Assembly (NCBI GenBank): GCA_053919585.1
Contig: CM132787.1
Direction: 5' to 3' (one strand)
DNA from: Euprymna scolopes
Lineage: Eukaryota
Length of the DNA: 63,869 nucleotides
Notes under the pieces: generated by a model
What the model saw: only the letters and a program-made list of their open reading frames with translations
Told to the model about the DNA's origin: nothing
The model's database searches: none
In this document: positions 809-63,869 of the stretch, piece after piece
Position numbering within the stretch: position 1 is the stretch's first letter
Layout: every line of letters starts with the position of its first letter
Program-made: the position numbers and the translations under genes

Positions 809-1027
809 TTTAGATAAATAATTTTGCAGCTTAACAAAGAAACTACAATAATGGCAGTGCTTCTCCATTTACACGGACGATCTACAGAATGCTAACATTA
901 TATATGAATGAGTTCACTGTGGAGTTTCCACAGATCCCGTTTGTACATATATTAATATATAAGTTTAGTTTCTGTGTGTCTATATTCGTGGTTAATATGT
1001 GAAAATTATATATTTTAACTACACATA

Positions 1028-1428
1028 CTAGCATGGATGTCCGGCGTTGCCCACGTATTTGGAGGTGTATGTTGAGCACCCCTCCCAATTAGCGGTCAAT
1101 TTTTTTTTAATTTGAACCCTATTATGGCCTCTTAAAATCTATTGTATTAGGTTCAAATCAAGTTATTAAGTATGATCCATGTCCAAGGAACCCATATACA
1201 AATGTTCAAGTGTTTAGACACAAAATTGTCGTAGTAGTTTGGTAGCGTTCTCAAAAGTAAAATCGTTGAACTTTGACCCCTTAATCCAAAAATTTCGGGC
1301 CGAAAACCGATCACATCGAGTACCCAGTATATCAAATTTCGAGTCTGTGGACTAAAAATGAGAGAGTTGTTGCGTATGGAAATGTACACACACGGACACA
1401 CAGACAGACAGATACACCGGCACGTTCA

Positions 1429-1436
<8 letters not shown>
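1028..1436 (-). mobile_element. Non-autonomous Helitron (family A)
   Basis: Reverse-complement CTAG|T end at 1027-1031 with adjacent hairpin ccggcgttgccc; other end has cacgttcactt plus GACA microsatellite; homologous to copies at 1497, 2597 and 49190-51290. Confidence 0.75.

Positions 1437-1492
<56 letters not shown>
1431..1492. repeat. (TA)n microsatellite (representative of many similar tracts in the window)
   Basis: Pure TA run; similar runs at ~1941, 2560, 3650, 5367, 12182, 19463, 24052, 43829, 63160, 63615 and elsewhere. Confidence 0.99.
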
Positions 1493-1496
<4 letters not shown>

Positions 1497-1497
<1 letters not shown>

Positions 1498-1914
1498 TAG
1501 CATTTCAGCCCGGCGTTGCCGGCTGTTTGGAGGTGTATGTTGAGAATAAAATGAAAAAAAGCGGTCAATTTTTAAAAATTTGTCCCCTATTATCACCCTC
1601 TAAAAATGTATAGTTTTGGGCTCAAACACAGTTATCAAGTTAGATCCATGTCCAAGAAACCTATATCTAAAATTTGAAGAGTTCAAACCAAAATTGTCGG
1701 AGAAGTTTGGTAGAGATCTCAAAGGTCAAATCATTGAACTTTAGCCCCTTTACAGCCAAATTTCTGTCCGAAAACCGATCACATAGACTTTCAAAAATCT
1801 CAGTATCTGTATATCAAATTTCAAGTCTGCAGACTAAACATTGACAGCGTTATCGCATACGGAAATGTACACAGAGATACAGAGGGACAGACACGTTCAC
1901 TTTTATATTTTAGA
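1497..1914 (-). mobile_element. Non-autonomous Helitron (family A)
   Basis: actagcatttcagcccggcgttgccgg at left (3' end); cacgttcacttttatattttaga at right (5' TC on minus strand). Confidence 0.8.
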
Positions 1915-1938
1915 TATATATTCTCATATGTAGACATG

Positions 1939-1982
<44 letters not shown>

Positions 1983-1986
<4 letters not shown>

Positions 1987-2556
1987 AAGTCATGATATAT
2001 GCTACTGGTACCATGTAACCCAGTACTGCCTGCATCATGGTCGGGCCACTGGTAACTAAACTGGTTGCCCCAGCAAACTTGTTTGGTTAGGAGGGTGACT
2101 AGTGTCCCTTAAGGATTAAAAACAAGACATTTAAAAGAGCGAATGGACCCTTTTTCGAGGTCAACGGCCAACTAGAACCTGTGTGTTCGTGTGTATGTAT
2201 GTATGTGTTGGAATTGAGAGGGCTCCCGTAAGTCCTGATGAAATAAACCTTTCTAGGATAAGCAAATCTCTGATTTCAAAAACAGTAAGCGGGAGACTAA
2301 TACCCGCATTAAGCTGAGCTGCAGTTTAACTTGTTGCAGGCTATCTTATTCTTGCTTGTTGCTGGATCTCACATTTTGAACCGAGAGAGAGACTTAGCTG
2401 TCGTACAAAGATAAGCCTCTGTAACATCATCTGTTTACAGATACTTATTCGGGCATCTGTCTATTAAAATTGTCCTTTGGCGATGAAAGTCATTGTTGGA
2501 CTCATGGACTTTAAGTGTCTGAGAGAGTGGCACTCGTCTGACAAGACGTTGCAATA

Positions 2557-2560
<4 letters not shown>
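1983..2560 (+). mobile_element. Candidate solo LTR inserted in (TA)n
   Basis: Block of ~570 bp, GC-richer than its flanks, between TA tracts; starts TGTCA, has TGACA at 2539-2543 and CA at 2559-2560; ATTAAA near 2463. No second copy to confirm. Confidence 0.35.
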
Positions 2561-2596
<36 letters not shown>

Positions 2597-2604
<8 letters not shown>

Positions 2605-3009
2605 TGAACATGTCTTTGTGTATGTGTGTCTTTCTGTGTATCTGTGTACATTTCCCTACGCAATAACTCCGTCAATTTCGCGTCTACAGACTCGAAATTT
2701 GATATACAGGGTACTGAGATTTGGGAAAATTTTGGGATCAGTTTTTGGCCAGGAATTTGACTATTAAGGGGTCACAGTTAAACGATTTGACCTTTGAGAA
2801 CTCTACCAAACTCCGACAATTTTGAGTCGAAACACTTGAATTTTTGTATATAGCTTCCTTGGACAGGGATCTAACTTAATAACTTGATTTGATCCCACAA
2901 CAATAATTGTTAAGGAGTCATAATAGGGGTCAAAGTTTAAAAAAATGAACCTTTTTTTTAATCCGTATACACCTCCAAACACCCGGGCAACGCCGGTCTG
3001 AAATGCTAG
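2597..3009 (+). mobile_element. Non-autonomous Helitron (family A)
   Basis: tataaaagtgaacatgtc...; ends cccgggcaacgccggtctgaaatgCTAG|T (hairpin + CTAG). Confidence 0.8.
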
Positions 3010-3013
3010 TATA

Positions 3014-3646
3014 TCTATAAAAGTGAACGTATCTGTTTGTCTGTCTGTCTATCTGTATGTATGTATGTAGTATGGTTGTGTGTCTGTGCACATTTCTCTA
3101 CTCAATAACTTTCGAATTTTAGTCTACAGACTTGAAATTTGACAGAAAGTGTAATCAGAGATAGGGCAAGCTTTTTAATGGGTTTGGGTCGAAAATTTTT
3201 AGTCACCAAGACATAAACCTATGTATGTACGTATATATGTATGTATGAATGTATGTATGTTTGCACGTCTGCCTAAAAATTTCAACAGCGGCGAGGGATT
3301 TTACTAAGATCAGTACCTTTTTGAGGTCAATCTTCCTGGACAAATATCGAAAATTAGCTAAAATCACTAATATCTTCGCTTTCAACTGTTTTTTTTTTTT
3401 ACAGGGGAGGGGGTCGGTTTTTTCGCCGATATTTTTGAAGGTCATCCTCTACTTTTGATGGTCTAATCTTAATTCAAACATAACTCACTTCTTGTTTGGC
3501 AGCGGCCGTTGCAGCAAATACGTCACGTTTTCCCCCGTTCTTTTACTCCTTCGAGTTACGAGTTTGATTCTGCCTTCCTAATACCACTTTATTTTTTTGC
3601 TCACCATACACATCAAAACATAGTTGGGCAATGCCAGGCGGAAATG

Positions 3647-19531: not shown

Positions 19532-21197
19532 AATTCAGTCCTCGCCCCAAAAAATGCACATTGCCACTATGAAATAGGGGGCTACTATCGGGGGCATACG
19601 TTACAGGGGTGTTGTGAAGGGAGATGTATCGCAAGATGTCTAGTCATATTTCCTTTATACTTCTGTATGGCAGTATAGTTAGGAAAGCAGAATGCCGAAA
19701 GGGAGGTCACATGTGTAGCAGTTCCGAAGAAGAAACTCTTGGAGTAGAAGGCTTTCTTACACCTAGAGATCGCTACTGTGAAGCGGTTTGATTTGGATGA
19801 TGTCGGGTATTTCGGGGCTATACATGTCGAGGGGGTACACGTGTTTGCAGTTCGTCAGAATATTCACCATTAAAGTACTAGTAAAACAGGCAGAGCGATG
19901 CAATATTTCGTCGATTGGACAGAGGCTGAAGCCTGGATGACAGTTCAGGACCTATCAGGTTGGCGACTCTCTTTTGACCCCTGTCAAGGAGAGAGAGAGA
20001 GACATACAGCAGATGCACCAACCCAAAAGTGACAACAATACTCCATACATGGGCGAATGGTGGCCTTATAGATGTATAGTATACTTTCAGGTTTCTAGCT
20101 TCGCAACAAACTTGGAATGCGCTCTATCTATTTTAGTTCATGTTCTCTGTAAATGTTAGGCCGAGGATTTTAAAAGAAGTACTTACGGGTAATGTGTTCT
20201 TAGCCATTGCTATTGGTGGTAGAGAAGGTGTTATGTACTTATTGAAGGAAAAAAACTTAGTCTTGGCAGAACTGAACGTGACCTTCCATTTTGCCCCCAT
20301 TCCACTACATATTGGAAGTCATCCTCCATTTTTCCCCTTATTTCCTTAGATATGAGTTCATTTGTTTATCCCTCATGCCAGTAATAGAGAGTTGTGTCAT
20401 CAGCAAATATACCCATCTCAGAAATAATTTTATCAGGGAGGTCATTCATGATTACTCATGACTAATAAAGGTCCAAAAATAGACCCTTGATGTAATCCCG
20501 AATTTATATCATATTGTTTAGATGTACGACTGTCGAAGACAATCTGGATTTTTCTCTTACTTAAGAAGGATTTAATAACATTATGTATTCTTCCAGTGAT
20601 ACCATATGATCTAATTTTCTTACGAAGACAATCATGCCATGCCCTGTCAAAAGGCATAGATATATCGAGGGCATCCGCTATATCCTCCCCGGTTTTGTCC
20701 AGTTTACGGTATATACGGTCCGAGGTTACAGTTAGGATATCTGATGTGGTACGGTCTTGTCTAAATCCATATTGATTGTCCGTCGGGATTTTAGCATCTG
20801 TAAGATGATGGGCAAAAGCTTGATTAATTAAGGAGTCACATCATTTTGCGAAAAGCGAGGGAAAGCTAATGGGGCGACTATATAATTAGACAGTTCCTTC
20901 GCCAGAATTATTGAAAAATGGAACGATAGAAGCGGTTTTCCTGCAGTCAGGAAAGTAAGGTTCGTTAAGGCATTTATTTTAAAGTTTGGAGAGAACTGAA
21001 GCAACCACAGAGAAGCATTTTTAATAGCACAGCTGGGATGATATCGTGTCCACATGCTTTTTGGGTTCGTTTTTTATACCATGTACCCGAGGAGGGGTGA
21101 TTTTCACATCTTCTAGTGTGGCGTCTATCCGCAAAGGAAAGTCAGGAAAAGTGTCGTGTGCGGGTCCAATGTGAAGTTTGAGGCAAAGCGACTGGTA
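19530..21197 (-). mobile_element. Decayed CR1/L2-group LINE (RT + 3' UTR), sister subfamily of the 46838-48569 element
   Basis: FDRAWHDCLRKKIRSYGITGRI...SGLHQGSIFGP, CMEYCCH, LQPLS motifs with frameshifts; 3' UTR shares gatagtagccccct; 3' end abuts (TA)n. Confidence 0.9.
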
Positions 21198-21314: not shown

Positions 21315-22525
21315 CAGGGCGTCTCAAAAATGTACTCACACTTGGAATGACGAGAACTCCTTTATGTATGAACACACAGTGAAATGGAATAGCTTAGAAT
21401 ACAGGAGATAAATTATATTAAAGAATCATGTTCGCAAATGTTCGAATTGATGACAATTATTGTCCAGACACCACTGATAACGCGAACCAAGAGATTCGCA
21501 AACGTCAGGAAACAGGTCATTAGGAATATCGCGACATTGCCTTTCAATTTTCATTATCAATGCTTCAATTGTTCTTGGTTTGGTGAGATAAACTTTGTCT
21601 TTGAGATATCCCCACAAAACGAAGGCCATGGGCGTGAGTTCCGGGGAACGTGCAGAGTATTCAATGGATCCCCTTCGTCCAATGCATGTGTCTGGAAAAG
21701 CTGCATCGAGGTGAGCTCGTACATCGCGATGGTAGTGGAAAGGTGCTTCATTTTGCTGAAAGTAAATCTCGCCGTCATCAGCAAACATCTCAGAAATTTG
21801 TGGAGCAATAAACTCCTGAAGCAAGTTAATGTATCTCTCACCAGTGACAGTTCCTATAATATAAATGTTTATATGGTGTTCAAGGGTTACATGAGGATTT
21901 ATAGGACCCCAGTACGTGCAATTATGGCGATTAATGGTGCTATTTAATGTAAAGGTTGCCTCATCGCTCCACACAATTTTATGTGGAAACCCTGCATCTC
22001 CTGTACATTTTGCCAGCTACCATTCACAGAATTCGACTCTCCGGTCTGGATGGTCTTCGTTGAGAGCATGAATTAGTATTGGAATGTAGCATTTCCAGTG
22101 CAGACGCTTCATGATGCGATGGGCGCTATCTTTTGAGGTGTGGGTTTCCCGAGCAGTTTGTCGAAGTGATTTTTGTGGTGATCTAAAGAGTATTTCCTGC
22201 ACCTACTCTTCTTTTTTAGGGCTCGGGGATGTCCAAGGTCGTCCAGAACGTCAAGAAACGTTCTGGACGGTTCCATCTGCTTCAAATTTATCTTTGATAC
22301 GAGCAATGGTCCGGCGCGTTGGCGGTGATCTTGTGAATTCCCTTCCGAATCGTCTGTGCACTTCAATGGCGTTTTCTGTCTTCCAATAACATTTCAGGGC
22401 AAACTTCGTCTCTTTTAAGCTAAGTTGATTTCCTGCCATGCTGTGGTTCACACTTACACCTGCAACTCAAAACAGACAGCATGTTAACAAGGGTTAAAGT
22501 GTGAGTACATTTTTGAGACACCCTG
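21315..22525 (-). mobile_element. Tc1/mariner-superfamily transposon, DD41D (rosa/Visitor-type), 1211 bp, inactive
   Basis: ~29-bp TIRs CAGGG(C/T)GTCTCAAAAATGTACTCACACTT, TA duplication at 21313-14 and 22526-27. Confidence 0.95.
21426..22440 (-). pseudogene. Transposase pseudogene (HTH + DD41D-spaced catalytic domain)
   Basis: WSDEATF, FQQ(N)[13 protein letters not shown](A)FVLWGYLK; 41 residues between the second and third catalytic positions, both mutated; frameshift near 22250, stop at 22017-19, apparent internal deletion after HVTLEHH. Confidence 0.9.
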
Positions 22526-37241: not shown

Positions 37242-38552
37242 GAGGGACAGAAATATACGTGCTTACCTCATACTGCCTGGACGAAAAAGAGACCTATAGA
37301 GGAAAAGGAATTCAGGGGTTGCATTACTGTGTATCCTTCCGCCTACAGTCAAATTACCACCTGGGCATGTTGAAGAGGGGGTTGACAACCGTGGCACTGA
37401 GATAAAGTGCAACCTCTCTCCCTATGCACGCTGAAATTTATAAGCATTCATAAATTTCAGAAACCCCTAATTTTCCGTGGATAGTGCGGCAAACGGCCGT
37501 CAGCAATCAATGTTTCCATGCTCCTCTACTGTCATGAACTCACTGAAGCAATTTATTTTTTTCGTCAGGCCCCGTGTCAGCTGGCATACTGCTTCAAATA
37601 CCAGGGAGGGTAATCATCTTCGCCCTCCTTCGAGGCAGTGAAGAAAAAAATGACGGAGGAATTTCAACCTCCTAGCTTAATATAACTTACACACACAGGT
37701 CCTCATGATTAGTGTTACTGTAGTTACGCTCTCTTTAACAAACAGTATAATGTATTTTAACCAAGCCTATGCTTACTTGAGTTCATCACGCCGATCTATA
37801 CATAGTTCAATTAATTCTTCATCAACTTATCACATTATTTCAGTAACTGGATTTACGGTCTCTTCAGGAACCAGTGTAATGCATTTTTACCTAATCGGAG
37901 TTTACGTGAGTTAATCACGCCGACCTATACCTATTTCAACTTAATCTGCATCCACTTATAACCTTATATCAGTAACTGAATTTACACTCTCTTCAGCAAC
38001 CAGTATAATGTATTTTAAATAATTCGGAGTTACGTGAAATCGTCACGCCGACCTATACCTATTTCAATTTATTCTGCGTCCGCTTATCATTTGATTTATA
38101 ACAATTAACCCCCAGAGTTACGTGACGTTATCTCGATTTTGATGATCACGCTGGTTACACCTTCAGTTTCCTCTTGTAATAGACTAAAACAACATTTTTA
38201 AAATCTACTACTACTGGGTTTATTGCTCCCCTCAGCTACCAGTTTAGTTTTGTTTATAAGTTGGGGTTACGTGACCTCATCACACCCATCTATATGGATT
38301 TACTTGAACCCCGGTCTTAAGAGGTCCTAATCCGAGGTAATTCTGTTAGAACTAGGAGTCTGAGGGACAGGAATATGCGTGCTTACCCCATAATGTCCGG
38401 AAGAAACAGGGGATTCTGGGGTTTCATTACTGTGTATCATTCCGCTTACAACAAAATTTCTACGCGGCGATGCTGAAGAGTGTGTTAACAACCGTGACAC
38501 TTAGATAAAGTGACACATTGGTATCCCTTCCCTAATTTTGTAAATATTCATA
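37242..38552. repeat. Element bounded by ~200-bp diverged direct repeats enclosing a ~128-bp tandem array
   Basis: gagggacag...cattactgtgtatc...acaaccgtg...gataaagtg at 37242-37452 and 38362-38552; tandem units start near 37741, 37869, 37998. Confidence 0.8.
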
Positions 38553-45667: not shown

Positions 45668-46403
45668 TCTATAATATAAAGTTGAATGTCTGTATGTGTG
45701 TGTCTAGCCACGAATATGTGTCTATGTGGTTGACTATTTGAAAAAACTGATTACATATAATGGCAGAAGATGGATCGAGATAGGAGTAGGTATGTTTGAT
45801 CTGGCAGAACGGTGATTCATAAAAATTGTGGGGTCTGCGTTCGCGCCTGGTCAACAAAGTATGGAAAAAAACAACGTTTACAAGTGTTTTGATATATATG
45901 TACATAAGACTACTTTGATAAATATGTTTTAAATTAAATAGGCTGGTATCATAAAATTGCGGGGTCTCCGTTCGCGCCTAGCCTTCATAGAATGAAAATA
46001 GGTACAACATTTAATAAAGACTTTTCTTATCTATCTGCGTAAGTATACTTTGATAATTATGTTTCAGTTTGAAGAAATATGGTATAATAAAATGATTGGG
46101 TGTTCGTTCGCATCTGACCTCCATAGAATGAAAATGTCACAAAGTTTAACAAGGTTTTTAATATAGATCCACAGAATATTGTGATAAGTATTTCAGTGTG
46201 AAAAGGTATGGTATAATATATTATAGGATTTATCTATTTTATTTTTACTTTCATCATATATTGCTTTGGTTTTGATACTCCCAAATTCAACCCAAACCCA
46301 AATTTCCAAACCTTCCTTTTCATAACCTACCATACTTTCATAAATCAGAATCAATTTTCTGTAGGCTGATTTTGAACCCAGTCAACAACGGATAATTTTG
46401 CTA

Positions 46404-46837: not shown

Positions 46838-48569
46838 TAAAATGCATTTGTTGTAGAGTTTGGAGAGAACTGGAGCTACTTCGGCTGAACACTGTTTTAA
46901 TAGCACAGCTAGGATAAGATCGGGTCCACGTGCTTTTGAAGTGTCAAGGTTTTTTTTTATGATAGCATGCACCTGAGCAGGGGTGGTTTTCAGATCGTCT
47001 AGCCTGGCGTCTGTCCGCATAGGAAAATCAGGTATGGGGTGGTTGGAAGGGTCCAGTGTGGAGTTTGAGGCAAACCGACTGGAAAGCATGTTAGCCCTGT
47101 CGGTTGCTGAGGAGACAACCTCGTGATTGTTGGAAAACTGCTTCTGTTGTACCAGTATTCAAGAATTCTGGCGAAAGGAGAGACCCATCAAATATCGCCC
47201 CATTAGCCTCCTCCCACTTTTTGCCAAAATATTTGAGACCATAATTTACCATGCTCTAGTCCATCATCTTACAGATGCTAAACTACTGACTGACAAACAA
47301 TATGGGTTTAGACAAGCCCGTTCCACAGTAGACATCCTAACTGTCATCTCTGAACGTATATACCATTCACTGGAAAAAGCGGGGGAGGGCAGAGCGGTAG
47401 CTCTAGATATATCTAAGGCTTTTGACAGGGTGTGGCATGAGGATCTCCTCAGGAAAATCAGATCATACGGTATCACTTGTAGAATACTTAACATAATTAA
47501 ATCCTTCTTAGATAAGAGAAAAATCCAGGTTGTCCTCGACGGTCGTACATCTAAACAATATGATATAAATGCGGGGGTGCCCCAGGGTTCTATCCTTGGA
47601 CCTCTATTTTCCTGATATTTTTAAATGACCTCCCCGACAAAATTGCCTGAGATGGGTATATATGCTGATGACACTACACTCTATGGCAGGCACGACAGGA
47701 AGACAAATGAACACATTTCTAAAGAAATGGCAGGAACACTAGAGGAAGACCTCCAATCTGTAGTGGAATGGGGATAAAAGTAGTTGGTCGCGTTCAATGC
47801 TGCCAAGACTAAACTAGTTTCATTCAATAATTACAAGAAACCCTATCTACCACCCATAGCAATGGCAAACAACTCTTTATCTGAGAGTCCATCTTTCAAA
47901 CTCCTTGGCCTAACGTTCACAGGAAACATGAGTTGGAACAATTACATTGAAGACATTGTCAGGGCCGCTGCAAGAAAGGTGGGCTCTCTCTACCGTGATA
48001 GAAAACTACTACCACCCGAAATTATCATGCACCTCTTTAAGGCCACCATTCGCGCATGTATGGAGTATTGCTGCCACATCTGGGCTGGTGCATCTGCTAC
48101 TAGTCTCTCGCTCCTTGACAAAGTTCAAAAGAGAGTCGCAAACCTGATAGGCTCTGAACTGGAATCTAAGCTTCAGCCTCTGTCCCATCGACGAAACGTT
48201 GCATCCCTCTGCCTTTTCTACAAGTATTTTAGTGGTGACGAACTGCAATCACTTGTACCCCACGACGTGAGCACCCTTGACAAAGCCGACAGGCTGCTAA
48301 ATCCCACCCCCATACTGTAGAGATCCCTAGATGTAAACGATTTTTTTACTCCAATAGTTTCTTCCCCAGAACCGCTAGACTCTGGAATTTAATTCCAGGT
48401 CCCTGCTTCCCCAACAGTACAGTCGTGCAAAAGTTCAAGTGTAACGTGAACCGACATCTTGCTGCCTAAATCCCTACATAATACCCCAGTAGTTGTTGCC
48501 CCTGATAGTAGCCCCCTACACCAAAGCATCAATTTGCCTTGTTTGGCGTGAAAATGTAATAAAAAAAAA
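46838..48569 (+). mobile_element. CR1/L2-group LINE, 5'-truncated, with inverted 5' segment (46838-~47123)
   Basis: RT motifs YRPISLL, QYGFRQARST, LDISKAFDRVWH, GVPQGSILGP, YADDTTL, MEYCCHIW; 3' UTR and A tail; upstream coding part on minus strand. Confidence 0.93.
47124..48470 (+). pseudogene. Reverse transcriptase pseudogene
   Basis: ORF fragments 47127-47615 and 47784-48320 separated by frameshifts and stops. Confidence 0.92.
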
Positions 48570-49189: not shown

Positions 49190-51290
49190 TTGCCAAGTTG
49201 TTTGGAGGTGAATTGTGAGAAAAAAAAAACAAAGGTCATTTTTTTTTTATTCGACTACTATTATGACCGCTTACAATTTATTATTTTGGGTTAGAATCGA
49301 ATTATTAAGTTAGATCCGTATCCAAGGTACCGATATCTAAAATTTCAAGTGCGTAGAACCAGAATAGTCGGAGGAGTTTGCTAGAGTTCTCAAAGGAAAA
49401 ATCGTTGAACTTTGACCGCTTAACAATAAAAATTGCTGGCCGAAAACTGATCACATAGATTTTCCCAAATCTCAGTACACTGTATATCAAATTTCGAGTC
49501 TGTAGACTAAAATTGACACATTTATTGCGTAGAGAAATTTACACAGACACACGGACACACAGTCACGTTCACTTTTATAGATATACTTTAATGGCTTCCC
49601 GGCCTTGCCCGAGTGTGAGGTGTATGCTGAGCAAAACCAAAAACCAAAAAAGAAAAACGGTCATTTTTTTTTTAATTTGACCCTATTATGACCCATAATA
49701 TTTATATTGTAGGGCTTCATTTAAGTTATTAAGTTAGACCCATGTCCACCGAACCTATATCTAAAATTTAAAATGTTTAAACAAAAAATTGTTTGAGGAG
49801 GTTAGTAGAGTTCTCAAAGGTCAAATCGTTGAACTTTGACCCCTTAACAACGAAATTTCTGGCCGAAAACCGATCACATGGATTTTTTTTCCGAATCTCA
49901 GTAACCTGTATATCAAATTTCGGGTCTATAGACTAATAAATGATAGAGTTATTGCGTAGGGAAATGTACACAGACAGAGACAGAGACAACCAGACAGATA
50001 AACGGACACATTCACTTTTATAGATATACTACTCCTCTATAAAAGTGAACGTGTCTGTTTATCTGTCTGTGTGTCTGTGTCTCTGTCTGTGTACATTTCC
50101 CTACGCAATAACTCTATAATTTATTAGTCTACAGACTGCTGGCTAAAATAAATTATTAAATTAGATCCATGGCCAGGGAACCTTTATCTAAAATTTCAAG
50201 TGTTTAGACAAAAAGTGTCGGGGGAGTTGGGTAGGGTTCTCAAAGGTCAAATCGTTGAACTTTGACCCCTTCAACAGTCAGATTTCTGGCCGAAACGGAT
50301 CACATATATTTTCCCAAATCTCAGTATCTTGTATATCAAATTTAGAGTCTGCAGACTTAAAATTGCCAGTGTTATTTCGTAGGCAAATGTACACAGACAC
50401 ACACACACACGCATACACACAGACAGACACGTTTATCTTTATAGATATATAGACTTGCATTGCAGCCCGGCGTTGCCCGGGTGTTTGGATGTGTCTGTTG
50501 AACAACAGTGGTCGTAGGAAGGCAGGTTCGAACCCGTACAGCGAAGGAGAAAATAACGGGGTAAAAACCTGACGTCTATGCTGTTAAAATCCCTGCCAAA
50601 TCGGAGCCGACATTTTTTTTTAAAATTACGGCTAGACAATCCTAAGGAGAGTATAACTTTCTAAAATATCGGCGAAAAAAGTGACCCCTCCCGGTCGAAA
50701 AGTGCATATGTAATGGTGAAGATATTAATGTTTTAGCCAATATTTCGATATTTGTCGTATGAAAGGTCGAACTTGAAAACGATACTGATCTTCGTAAAAT
50801 CCGTCGCCTCTGTCGAGATTTTTAGGCAGACATGCAAACATAAACACACATACATACATCTATATATTGGTGATTGAACATTTTCGACCCAAACAGATAG
50901 AAAAAAAATGCAAAATTTCAAATGTTTAGATCAGAAATTGTCTGAGCAATTTGAAAGAGATCGCAGAGGTCAATTTTGTTTTAAGTTTGACCCCTTTTTT
51001 GACCGCTTAGCATTTATTGTTTTGGGTTCAAATCAAGTTATTAAGTTAGATCCATGTCCAAGAAACCTATATCTAAAATTTAAAGATTCAAACTTATCTG
51101 AGGAGTTTGGCAGAGTTCTCAAAGGTCAAATCATTGAACCTTGACCCCTTAACAGACAAATACTTCGTCGAAAACAGATCGCATGAATTTTCCCCAATCT
51201 CAGTACACTTTATATCAAATTTTGAGTTTTTTAGTAAAATTTGAGTTATTGCATAGGGAAATGTACACAGACACACAGAAATCACCAGAC
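49190..51290 (-). mobile_element. Cluster of ~4-5 Helitron family A copies (49190-49582, 49590-50025, 50036-50137 on +, 50150-50447, 50452-51290)
   Basis: Repeated ttagatccatgtcc...ggtcaaatcgttgaactttgacccc...cacgttcacttttataga blocks and cccggcgttgccc hairpins. Confidence 0.85.
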
Positions 51291-52336
51291 TGAATTCATG
51301 TGACGATAATTATACTGTATATTACATAGGTAGAAATTGGACCATACTATTAACGATTCACTTTACATAAAAACACTAAGTGAATGAATAATATCAGGAC
51401 ATAATTTTCCCAAAGTTGACCATTTAAATATGCTATAATATATATTTTTGACCTTACTGGATTCTGGGACGAGAATTCACCTTGTCTAGTAAAATATCCA
51501 GCTTCTTACACTTACGAGAATTCGAGGAAATTTCAGTTATCTGATTGAAGCTTATTTGTAAGGAAATATATGTACATGTTATGTTTATCTGATTAACCCT
51601 TGTGCATATAGATCTTAGACAACTGAGGATAGTATCTAGTGGGAATTACATTTTTATCAGGTACGCAATCAGTTTACTCTAGTAGATATTTGAGTTCTCT
51701 CCCGTGTGTATTCGAATTCTCTCTCATCCAAGTTATCACCTGTTGGAATCTAATTTCTCCAGTAGGCATTNNNNNNNNNNNNNNNNNNNNNNNNNNNNNN
51801 NNNNNNNNNNNNNNNNNNNNNNNNNNNNNNNNNNNNNNNNNNNNNNNNNNNNNNNNNNNNNNNNNNNNNNNNNNNNNNNNNNNNNNNNNNNNNNNNNNNN
51901 ATTTAACGTTACGGAAGTGCTAATTTGCCTCGTGTCATAAACACTTTTTACATCATAATGGAAATAAAGGTCTGTTGACAGATGAGAAAGGTATATTTTT
52001 ATCTTGTGCTCTAGTAGAACATGGCTTATTTATTTTCATTTAAAACAGTGGGCTTTTATCCACACTTAAATATAACCATTGTTAAGTACACCTTTTCATA
52101 CTATTTTCATGGCAGAAACTCTTGGCTGGACATAAATAATTACAAGAATTAAAGTTGTATTAAGATTCCGCCCTCATGGAGTTTAATTCGAACACAAACA
52201 ATGCTTTCCTGGGCAGCACAATCTTGCAGTAATGACAATATGATTCTTATCTTCTTAAAGAAAAAAAAATAGAAAGCAAGGAAAAAAATTCACATACGTA
52301 AATGTTGACGGAAGAGGCTAGCATATTATTTAATTG

Positions 52337-61956: not shown

Positions 61957-62009
<53 letters not shown>

Positions 62010-62179
62010 AGGGTATATTTAGAATGGAAGGTGTCTAAGTTAAAATAAATTTATAAATACCCATGTAAAATTTAAAAGCGTTAATAAACAAGGTATAAAC
62101 ATATATATATGTATATATATATATATGTATATATATTTATATATATTATATATATATATAGTGATTTATAAAATATATA

Positions 62180-62245
62180 TGGCGATGAAGCTACACTGAA
62201 TATTCTGCGTTTCATCCACTATATGATTCGCCAGGCTTATGCGAT
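62180..62245 (-). ncRNA. Mutated type I hammerhead (inverted copy)
   Basis: CTGGCGA core (A6G) and a stem II mismatch (atca/ggat). Confidence 0.7.
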
Positions 62246-62488
62246 AATTCTGTGGTTGTTTCTCGTTTTTATATATGTTGAGGATTTTAGTTAGCCAATC
62301 AGCTTTCTAGTATTCACCGCGCACCTTCCTATAAGGAAGACATTTGCTTGCCATCGCATTCGGTGTATTAGCTCATCTGTTTTTTTTATTAATTTAATTA
62401 TTTAGCTATGCTTGCTGGGTGTGGGGATGTGTTTTAGCGATGTTTCGAATCCTCAACATATATAAAAACGAGAAACAACCACATCATT

Positions 62489-62552
62489 CGCGCATAAGCC
62501 TGACGAATCCTATAGTGGATGAAACGCAGAATATTCTGTGTTGCTTAATCGC
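62489..62552 (+). ncRNA. Type I hammerhead ribozyme, predicted cleavage after GUU at 62542
   Basis: taagc-CTGACGA-atcc(tatagt)ggat-GAAA-cgcagaatattctgtg-TT-gctta: all core nucleotides and stems I, II, III present. Confidence 0.85.
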
Positions 62553-62910
62553 CATATATATTTAACAAATTACTAACTAGCTCTAACTGCGTATTGGGCA
62601 ATTTTGAAGTAAATATTTAAAGTTTACGCATAAATCAATACTGTCGTATATTTATTTTATGTGAGTAACTGAAGTAGTTATACTTAGCTCCTAAAACTGT
62701 CGAGCACTCTCAAAATAATTTATTTCACTACATTAAAAATTGATATGGAAAGAGTTAATTTCGAAACATCGCTAAAAAAAACATCCCCACACCCAGCAAG
62801 CATGGCTATATTATAAAATTAATCCAAAAAAAACGGATAAACTAATACGCCGAATGCGAGGGCGAGCACATTTCTTCCTTATAGGAAGCGGCGCGGTGGA
62901 TACTAGAAAG

Positions 62911-62968
62911 CTGATTGGCTAACTAAAATCCTCAACATATATAAAAACGAGAAACAACCACATCATTC
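62911..62968 (+). promoter_or_regulatory. Putative Pol II promoter: reverse CCAAT (ATTGG 62914), TATATAAAAA (62938), Inr TCATTC (62963)
   Basis: Motifs with ~25-27 bp TATA-to-Inr spacing; TATA and Inr repeated at 62459 and 62484. Confidence 0.6.
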
Positions 62969-63031
62969 GCGCATAAGCCTGACGAATCCTATAGTGGATG
63001 AAACGCAGAATATTCAGTGTAGCTTAATCGC
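62968..63031 (+). ncRNA. Type I hammerhead ribozyme, predicted cleavage after GUA at 63021
   Basis: taagc-CTGACGA-atcc(tatagt)ggat-GAAA-cgcagaatattcagtg-TA-gctta; one mismatch in stem III. Confidence 0.88.
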
Positions 63032-63156
63032 CATATATATTTTATAAATTACTAACTAGCTCTACCTACGTATTGATCAATTTTGAAGTAAATACTTAAA
63101 GTTTACGCATAAATCTATACTTTCGTATATTAATTTTATGTGAGTAAATGAAGTAG

Positions 63157-63210
<54 letters not shown>

Positions 63211-63611
63211 AATAGTAAATGCACATTTTATACATATGCATATACATATACTCATATATGTATATGCAATGATATATTTATATGTACACACACATATATA
63301 TAATATGAATATTAATGAATATATACATATATATGCATATATATATATATATACACATATTTAAATAAATAAATTCAATTTTTTAAGTTTTTGTGTACGT
63401 TAAAGTTCATGTGTGCATTTTAATTTTTAATATGCGTTAGGATATAGATATTCATTTTATATTTTTAGATATTTATATTGTAATCGGTATTCCGCAAATG
63501 CTTACATATATATATATATTCTGAGGGTATATGTAAAATTGAAGGTGTCTAAGTTAAAATAAATTGATAAATATCCATGTAAAATTTTAAAGCGTTTATA
63601 AACAAAGTATA

Positions 63612-63679
<68 letters not shown>

Positions 63680-63786
63680 CAATTGTAAATGCATCTTTTA
63701 TACATATACATATACGCATATATATGTATATGCAATGATATATTTATATGTACAAACACACATATATATAATATAAATATAAATTA

Positions 63787-63833
<47 letters not shown>

Positions 63834-63869
63834 CATATTTAAATAAATAATTTTTTTTTTTTTTAAGTT

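Follow-up and report, generated by a model that had tools for sequence, protein, structure and literature searches.

What kind of element carries two hammerhead ribozymes 479 nt apart, in the same orientation and with no intact gene between them? The pair lies near the end of a 63,869-nucleotide stretch of the Euprymna scolopes genome (contig CM132787.1 of assembly GCA_053919585.1), which we refer to as the window. A first-pass annotation had proposed a retrozyme-like unit whose tandem transcript is cut into a non-coding monomer or circular RNA. The window is AT-rich and eukaryotic in character, and (TA)n tracts and LINE-type reverse transcriptase (RT) fragments are frequent in it. As judged from its sequence, the region from 62159 to 63161 is an inverted, 5'-truncated arm joined to a partial tandem of an internally deleted Penelope-like element (PLE) of the Hydra clade.

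Self-alignment reveals a direct repeat of about 1.5 units, in which 62448-62682 (copy A) matches 62927-63161 (copy B) with 94.5% identity; this 479-nt repeat is absent from Tandem Repeats Finder output. A third, inverted copy (arm C), overlooked by the first-pass annotation, adjoins copy A head to head. The parts of the insertion and its target are:

62159..63161, no strand assigned: whole insertion, about 1 kb, from self-alignment and end positions
62159..62449, minus strand: inverted arm C, matching 62760-63054 at about 90% identity, with 28 differences in 293 columns
62448..62449, no strand assigned: head-to-head junction of arm C and copy A, with a 2-nt overlap
62927..63161, plus strand: copy B (3' pLTR), ending 140 nt past the cut, into (TA)n
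62101..62158, no strand assigned: left (TA)n target tract
63162..63206, no strand assigned: right (TA)n target tract
63522..63789, plus strand: paralogous empty site, consisting of a left-flank copy, an uninterrupted (AT)31 and a right-flank copy

Arm C ends 33 nt past its own cut site, where it runs into (TA)n. The three copies diverge pairwise by 3-10%, and the decay of the arms amounts to 5.6-9.6%. The left flank (62008-62100) is repeated at 63522-63614 with 91% identity, and the right flank (63207-63321) at 63677-63789 with 86% identity. Because these flank copies are joined by plain (AT)31, the paralogous empty site delimits a single 1-kb insertion. Both flanks and the empty-site paralog thus place the insertion in a (TA)n tract, the target of the Hydra clade. 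The host sequence around the insertion is a tandem repeat of about 470 bp (62008-62100, 63207-63390, 63522-63869), and the next unit of this repeat keeps the empty site.

The layout combines a partial tandem (pLTR) with a neighbouring copy that is inverted and 5'-truncated, and one end bears a tail, as is described as typical of PLEs (PMC8557442). The tail is 107 nt here, in contrast to 30-40 in PLEs in general.

Elsewhere in the window, two decayed LINE-type RT fragments (47121-48546 and 19547-20952) lie in opposite orientation, are 73% identical, and match Pfam RVT_1 with E values of 1e-22 and 2e-10, respectively. Open reading frame (ORF) pieces on the minus strand at 21426-22393 resemble a Tc1/mariner-type transposase; the ORF piece tested from this region had no Pfam match. 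Dispersed repeats of 300-500 bp (1007-3232, 49190-51293) occur in about eight copies with 70-82% identity, several of them ending in (TA)n. Short tandem repeats with periods of about 129-132 nt are found at 37717-38089 and 45817-46218.

Each of the three copies contains a hammerhead:

62495..62547, plus strand: hammerhead A, type I, GUU, with core CTGACGA at 62500 and a predicted cut after 62542
62974..63026, plus strand: hammerhead B, type I, GUA, with core CTGACGA at 62979 and a predicted cut after 63021
62187..62239, minus strand: hammerhead C, degenerate, with core CTGGCGA, a helix II mismatch and a shorter helix I; it misfolds

Hammerheads A and B have the CUGANGA and GAAA boxes, the NUH site and the three helices with open helix I that define type I, a set that is incomplete in C. 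Nucleotide N17 is at 62542 in A and 63021 in B, helix I has 5 bp and an internal loop, helix II has 4 bp, and loop 2 has 6 nt. A strict descriptor matches the window twice, at A and B, and gives no match in 60 of 60 dinucleotide shuffles. Both also adopt a hammerhead shape in the minimum free energy (MFE) structure. The descriptor and the MFE folds bear out the annotated pair of cores with period 479 and cuts after 62542 and 63021. The full stems that had been claimed for both are present in A; helix III of B carries an A-A mismatch. Only A is more stable than its shuffles (z -2.5, against -0.8 for B). An Infernal-type search with hammerhead models, proposed by the same annotation, returned no Rfam hammerhead or other relevant family at the locus, even at E<=10. 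This miss says little, since in a control at E<=1 the same models recovered 0 of 12 descriptor-defined hammerheads from five related loci (described below).

The helix III insert of A (62524-62539) is 16 nt long and perfectly palindromic, whereas that of Hydra-type hammerheads in related loci is 7-8 nt. The lengthened palindromic helix III of A should, according to folding models, permit monomer folding, and A is predicted to adopt the monomer fold in a short nascent transcript with a base-pair probability of 0.95 or more. When the unit upstream is included in the fold, B is predicted to form helices I and II with a probability of < 0.1, though the active fold costs only 2.2 kcal/mol locally. 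The helix III palindromes of A and B can cross-pair at a predicted -21 kcal/mol, an arrangement proposed for PLE hammerheads (PMC4209133).

In the 479-nt unit, a 5' UTR of 202 nt is followed by the first 175 nt of the ORF and then by a 3' region of 102 nt; these parts and the relic in arm C are located as follows:

62543..62744, plus strand: 5' UTR, from the cut to the ATG, 202 nt
62745..62919, plus strand: relic of an RT-endonuclease ORF, first ~58 codons, with ATG at 62745 and two frame breaks, from tblastn, HMM and translation; it may reach ~62934
62294..62449, minus strand: ORF relic of arm C (P0001), in one frame with one internal stop, matching HMM positions 6-54 with iE 1e-8
62920..62973, plus strand: deletion junction, with what is left of the 3' region; from the relic to the cut is 102 nt

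The first-pass description of the unit as lacking an ORF is correct in that no ORF is intact, but the stretch 62745-62919 derives from the beginning of a Penelope-like RT ORF, now decayed. In arm C (P0001), 52 codons can be read in one frame with one stop.

We searched P0001 against 1.84 billion protein representatives and obtained 15 matches at E<=1e-3, the best real match having an E value of 2e-5. An N-terminal S.KNIP...RMRW motif is common to 14 of the 15; the other match is a repeat artefact. With a profile built from P0001 and the 14 matches, we detected 509 longer proteins among 7998 scored. Among the 120 matches listed of these 509, 94 are at least 600 aa long, and these 94 carry RW[KR] (91/94), DK[TS] (94/94), YxDD (94/94) and CxCx5C (90/94). 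An HMM built from the 94 is significant in the window only at HMM positions 6-54, in both arms. The protein P0002 was left out of the analysis.

The Hydra clade has been defined by RWK, DKT and CxCX5C motifs, (TA)n targets and hammerheads (PMC8557442). Arm C reads RMRW followed by Q, and so has the N-terminal RWK region of this clade; the published Hydra-1_Obim and Hydra-1_Ajap proteins start with the same N-terminal motif (PMC8557442 supplement). The hammerhead is near the 3' end, with the insertion ending 33 and 140 nt past the cut. We rejected the Naiad elements as a source despite their TA target, since they are described as having their endonuclease first and as being without canonical hammerheads (PMC8557442). 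Other searches were uninformative: word-index searches with the relic alone recovered no relative, a PDB search gave one irrelevant weak match, and Pfam applied to six full-length relatives gave below-cutoff RVT_1 in two and GIY-YIG in none.

The unit is, on these similarities, a non-autonomous deletion derivative of a Hydra-clade PLE. It has in common with the Hydra clade (C-terminal EN+; Craig et al. 2021, PMC8557442) the RT N-terminus, a 3' hammerhead, the (TA)n target, and the tandem with an inverted arm. Hydra elements are about 2.4-2.5 kb, with RT core and endonuclease, and the cut-to-cut unit of the related locus L008 is 2487 nt. In contrast, the present unit has 479 nt and neither domain, so about 2 kb is missing. 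Within the window, DKT, the RT core, the CxCX5C linker and the C-terminal GIY-YIG are all absent, as is any C-terminal ORF remnant at the junction or other Hydra fragment detectable by HMM search. In the related loci, the distance from cut to ATG is 146-170 nt (4 loci) and that from stop to cut 118-235 nt (21 of 22 copies with a stop found; the outlier of 404 nt was assigned to a neighbouring element).

The relic is broken in both arms, and in 47 codons it shows 3 synonymous changes against 12 that are non-synonymous or create stops. It decays neutrally, and we rejected a coding role for it on these two grounds. In its present state the unit is thus non-coding and non-autonomous, as the first-pass annotation had held, with the relic broken and the RT core and endonuclease gone. 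We also considered a promoter upstream of hammerhead B, where what we take to be a CCAAT-like box (62911-62920), a TATA-like run (62938) and an initiator-like hexamer precede the ribozyme. We do not claim one: the CCAAT lies inside the relic, such motifs are common in the window (17 overlapping matches for TATA plus initiator), and there is no conservation, with 0 of 17 related upstream regions holding both promoter-like motifs. A sigma-70 scan was set aside as inapplicable to a eukaryote. Over the 63 nt at 62900-62962, arm C does not differ from the direct copy (permutation p 0.02), and a palindromic hairpin lies at 62875-62889, about 40 nt upstream of the deletion junction. Copy A is truncated at 62448 (equivalent to 62927), at most about 7 nt from the deletion junction (62920-62934).

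Non-coding PLEs have a precedent in the Chlamys elements (MRC1; PMC8557442), which likewise have pLTRs, are arranged head to tail and are presumed to be mobilised in trans. However, they belong to another clade, are described as mostly without hammerheads, and resemble their autonomous partners mainly at the 3' end (PMC8557442), whereas the present unit retains the 5' UTR and the ORF start.

Related elements were collected by scanning prokaryotic genome contigs (GTDB) with a Hydra alignment, which yielded 22 loci (L001-L022) in 7 assemblies. Their content and titles indicate that these sequences in bacterial bins are most likely contaminating host DNA. Eleven of the 22 loci come from one assembly (CBDDTI01), so that hairpin instances from them (see below) are non-independent. 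We retained 26 of their 31 hammerheads as Hydra-type and left out five, comprising one fragment cut 10 nt past the site and four with another helix III type and no Hydra ORF. The latter four (L012:2760, L014:1959, L014:2088, L016:4797), which have very short helix III, occur in the same (TA)n clusters as Hydra elements, and three of them end in (TA)n 52-55 nt past the cut, with no hairpin. Of the 120 protein relatives listed, 54 by visual count are nearly complete ORFs, and their contigs measure 2.2-2.75 kb. In locus L015 (1-2535) the unit is circularly permuted and its ends overlap by 141 nt; such unit-length assemblies (L003, L015 and similar) represent either collapsed repeats or monomer RNAs.

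Downstream of the hammerheads we identified a short bulged hairpin, present in the window as three copies:

62580..62602, plus strand: bulged hairpin 1 of copy A, degenerate, third-ranking matrix match in the window; arm C ends 4 nt before its equivalent
62687..62708, plus strand: bulged hairpin 2, top matrix match (26.1); copy B ends 4 nt before its equivalent
63059..63081, plus strand: bulged hairpin 1 of copy B, degenerate, fourth-ranking matrix match in the window

The hairpin consists of GCYC, an inner helix, a 2-nt 3' bulge (TT in 14/17 instances), GRGC and RCT. We found 19 instances downstream of hammerheads and, after dropping two duplicates, used 17 distinct ones. A MAFFT alignment placed the hairpins out of register, and pairs were therefore counted by anchoring and the model R1 was made sequence-only. 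The outer stem was itself selected for and so carries little weight. Selection did not extend to the inner three pairs, which are paired in 45/51 cells at the 2-nt bulge, compared with 14-20/51 in four slid registers, and the fifth pair is C-G in 9 and U-A in 8 of the 17 instances, a case of covariation. A matrix trained on the related loci only, whose training sequences range from 25 to 31, gives hairpin 2 of the window its score, and R1 detects it with an E value of 0.0036. The hairpin 1 copies in the window are missed by R1 and fold no better than shuffles.

Each of the four loci in which a hammerhead is followed by an ORF start has two hairpins, and the positions of the hairpins correspond to those of insertion ends. 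Both ends in the window, that of arm C and that of copy B, stop 4 nt before the GCTC that opens a GC-closed hairpin, at sites 107 nt apart in the 5' UTR. In all six comparable pairs of a truncated and a continuing copy, from four families, identity stops 4-6 nt before the hairpin. A run of (TA)>=5 within 160 nt downstream occurs in 14 of the 26 hammerhead copies; in seven it begins at +32 to +55 with no preceding hairpin, in seven at +105 to +119 with hairpin 1 preceding, and in none between. By eye, the hairpin is also present in the published consensus sequences of Hydra-1_Ajap, Hydra-2_Ajap, Hydra-2_Amil and Hydra-1_Crog (PMC8557442 supplement). The main text of PMC8557442 contains neither 'hairpin' nor 'stem-loop'. 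We found no description of this hairpin or of non-autonomous Hydra elements in the literature searched, a set of papers outside subscription journals. Within that literature, the new point is a duplicated hairpin that predicts insertion ends across the clade.

These positions suggest that the hairpin sets the site of internal RT initiation. A related process is reported for the Poseidon element PAc of Anolis (Frangieh et al. 2024, PMC11167929), whose protein acts on AT-rich DNA by nicking both strands and extending them. In vitro, RT starts internally at two sites downstream of the hammerhead that match genomic ends and define the 'tail'. Hammerhead mutants of PAc still insert, so that cleavage is dispensable there. 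However, PAc initiates inside the ORF, at an AC-rich stem-loop, and at a site non-homologous to the target (PMC11167929). As it belongs to another clade and uses another signal, the precedent that it provides for a hairpin rule is limited, and the priming mechanism of Hydra elements can be drawn from it by analogy only.

By that analogy, the locus is probably the product of one old retrotransposition of a non-autonomous, internally deleted Hydra-clade element, copied in trans via hairpin-guided priming. The RT/GIY-YIG protein of an autonomous relative would nick the (TA)n tract, and the RT, acting in trans, would bind the deleted tandem RNA at its hairpins. The nicked (TA)n would then prime internally at template positions ending in TA, 4 nt upstream of each hairpin. 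Priming at hairpin 2 would give the right end (+140) and run through 1.5 units, priming at hairpin 1 would give the left inverted arm (+33), and the two cDNAs would join head to head at the 2-nt overlap. The hammerheads would be inherited as pLTR ribozymes, and a read-through transcript could yield a 479-nt piece, 62543-63021. Since both orientations carry the junction, the deletion arose before or during the present insertion, and since both carry the deletion, the non-coding template was probably copied in trans. Mobilisation in trans by a Penelope-like RT, which had been suggested from the hammerheads, is for this reason the explanation that we consider best. A broader reading, which we put forward tentatively and would not be surprised to see fail, is that the duplicated hairpin serves the whole clade as an RT-binding ruler, with synthesis starting 4-6 nt upstream, and that the 479-nt unit represents a trans-mobilised family intermediate between Penelope and retrozymes. 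On the same tentative footing, the two hairpins would make the two ends and the tail, and the unit, through internal deletion, would have kept only the hammerhead with its lengthened helix III, both hairpins and the ORF start. The part of this reading that concerns a multi-copy family rests on one locus.

The active retrozyme originally proposed, a non-LTR element whose tandem transcript is cut at both hammerheads into a 479-nt monomer that circularises and serves as template, appears to us very unlikely. Two consecutive, intact cores in direct orientation are present, as retrozymes require; A is predicted to fold as a monomer, with a helix III longer than that of related loci, and the palindromes could cross-pair. 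Moreover, 479 nt is inside the 51-972 bp reported for retrozyme families (bioRxiv 10.64898/2026.07.22.740005), and retrozymes are likewise short and low in GC, with one type I hammerhead per unit, non-autonomous and of proposed PLE origin (Cervera and de la Pena 2020, PMC7229834; Li et al. 2026). However, the locus holds fewer than two full units and no array, its arms are decayed, and hammerhead B is predicted to misfold behind an upstream unit. Retrozyme circles are described as highly self-paired and 170-400 nt long (PMC7229834), whereas the 479-nt monomer pairs with itself no better than shuffles (linear z -0.32; circular z -0.31, with 22 of 60 shuffles as stable). In the published data, no PAc RNA-seq reads start or end at the cut (PMC11167929), and 8/9 Xenopus dimers are uncleaved, with cleavage in 1/9 (bioRxiv 10.64898/2026.07.22.740005). 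The 479-nt cleavage piece leaves the insertion ends unexplained, as these track internal sites (+33 and +140 from the cut) and not the cut sites. Copies B and C share four states against A. One of these states disrupts the palindrome of helix III; within 126 nt, B carries no change of its own. The pattern agrees better with a linear template of two slightly different units than with a monomer circle, but the hint is weak, since palindrome repair in A would look alike. The monomer array or circular RNA of the first-pass annotation finds no support at this locus, which comes close to the alternative that the annotation itself had set against it, namely hammerheads as termini of an ORF-bearing Penelope: they are pLTR ribozymes of an internally deleted Hydra-clade element, with an ORF relic in the spacer and PLE-type ends. 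From its sequence, the unit would have worked like a small trans-mobilised retroelement, yet it lacks the array and the self-pairing of retrozymes. It also arose by internal deletion and not by amplification of a lone pLTR.

An origin by accident would require no non-autonomous family, in that a template jump of the RT would have removed about 2 kb from an autonomous Hydra element in a single insertion, and the inverted arm would have been copied from the deleted cDNA or converted later. Neither a second locus in the window nor a close short-peptide relative in the searches was found, as this would predict, and the truncation of copy A nearly meets the junction, suggesting a site of RT fall-off. 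A pre-deleted template does not predict that coincidence within about 7 nt, which keeps the template-jump model alive. However, arm C has its own initiation end (+33) and yet spans the junction, which argues for separate priming on a deleted template, and the states shared by B and C hint, weakly, at a template of two units. We regard a one-off accident as unlikely. An assembly artefact, or separate Penelope fragments brought together by chance in TA-rich DNA, can practically be dismissed: although the window has seven N runs, the locus lies close to its end and several elements are piled at TA tracts in related loci, the region itself contains no N, its three copies are mutually divergent, both orientations share one junction, and a single insertion is bracketed by the empty-site paralog.

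Hairpin-guided priming of a deleted template in trans, the reading that we prefer, bears on both the mechanism and the history of these elements. A short, conserved and covarying hairpin that predicts ends within 2 nt across families lends itself to a direct test, for which the 479-nt unit would be a natural minimal template. Animal retrozymes have been argued to derive from the pLTRs of PLEs (Li et al., bioRxiv 10.64898/2026.07.22.740005). For such a descent from Penelope to retrozyme, this locus would offer a concrete route, an internal deletion that keeps the cis signals while the parent clade can still be read.
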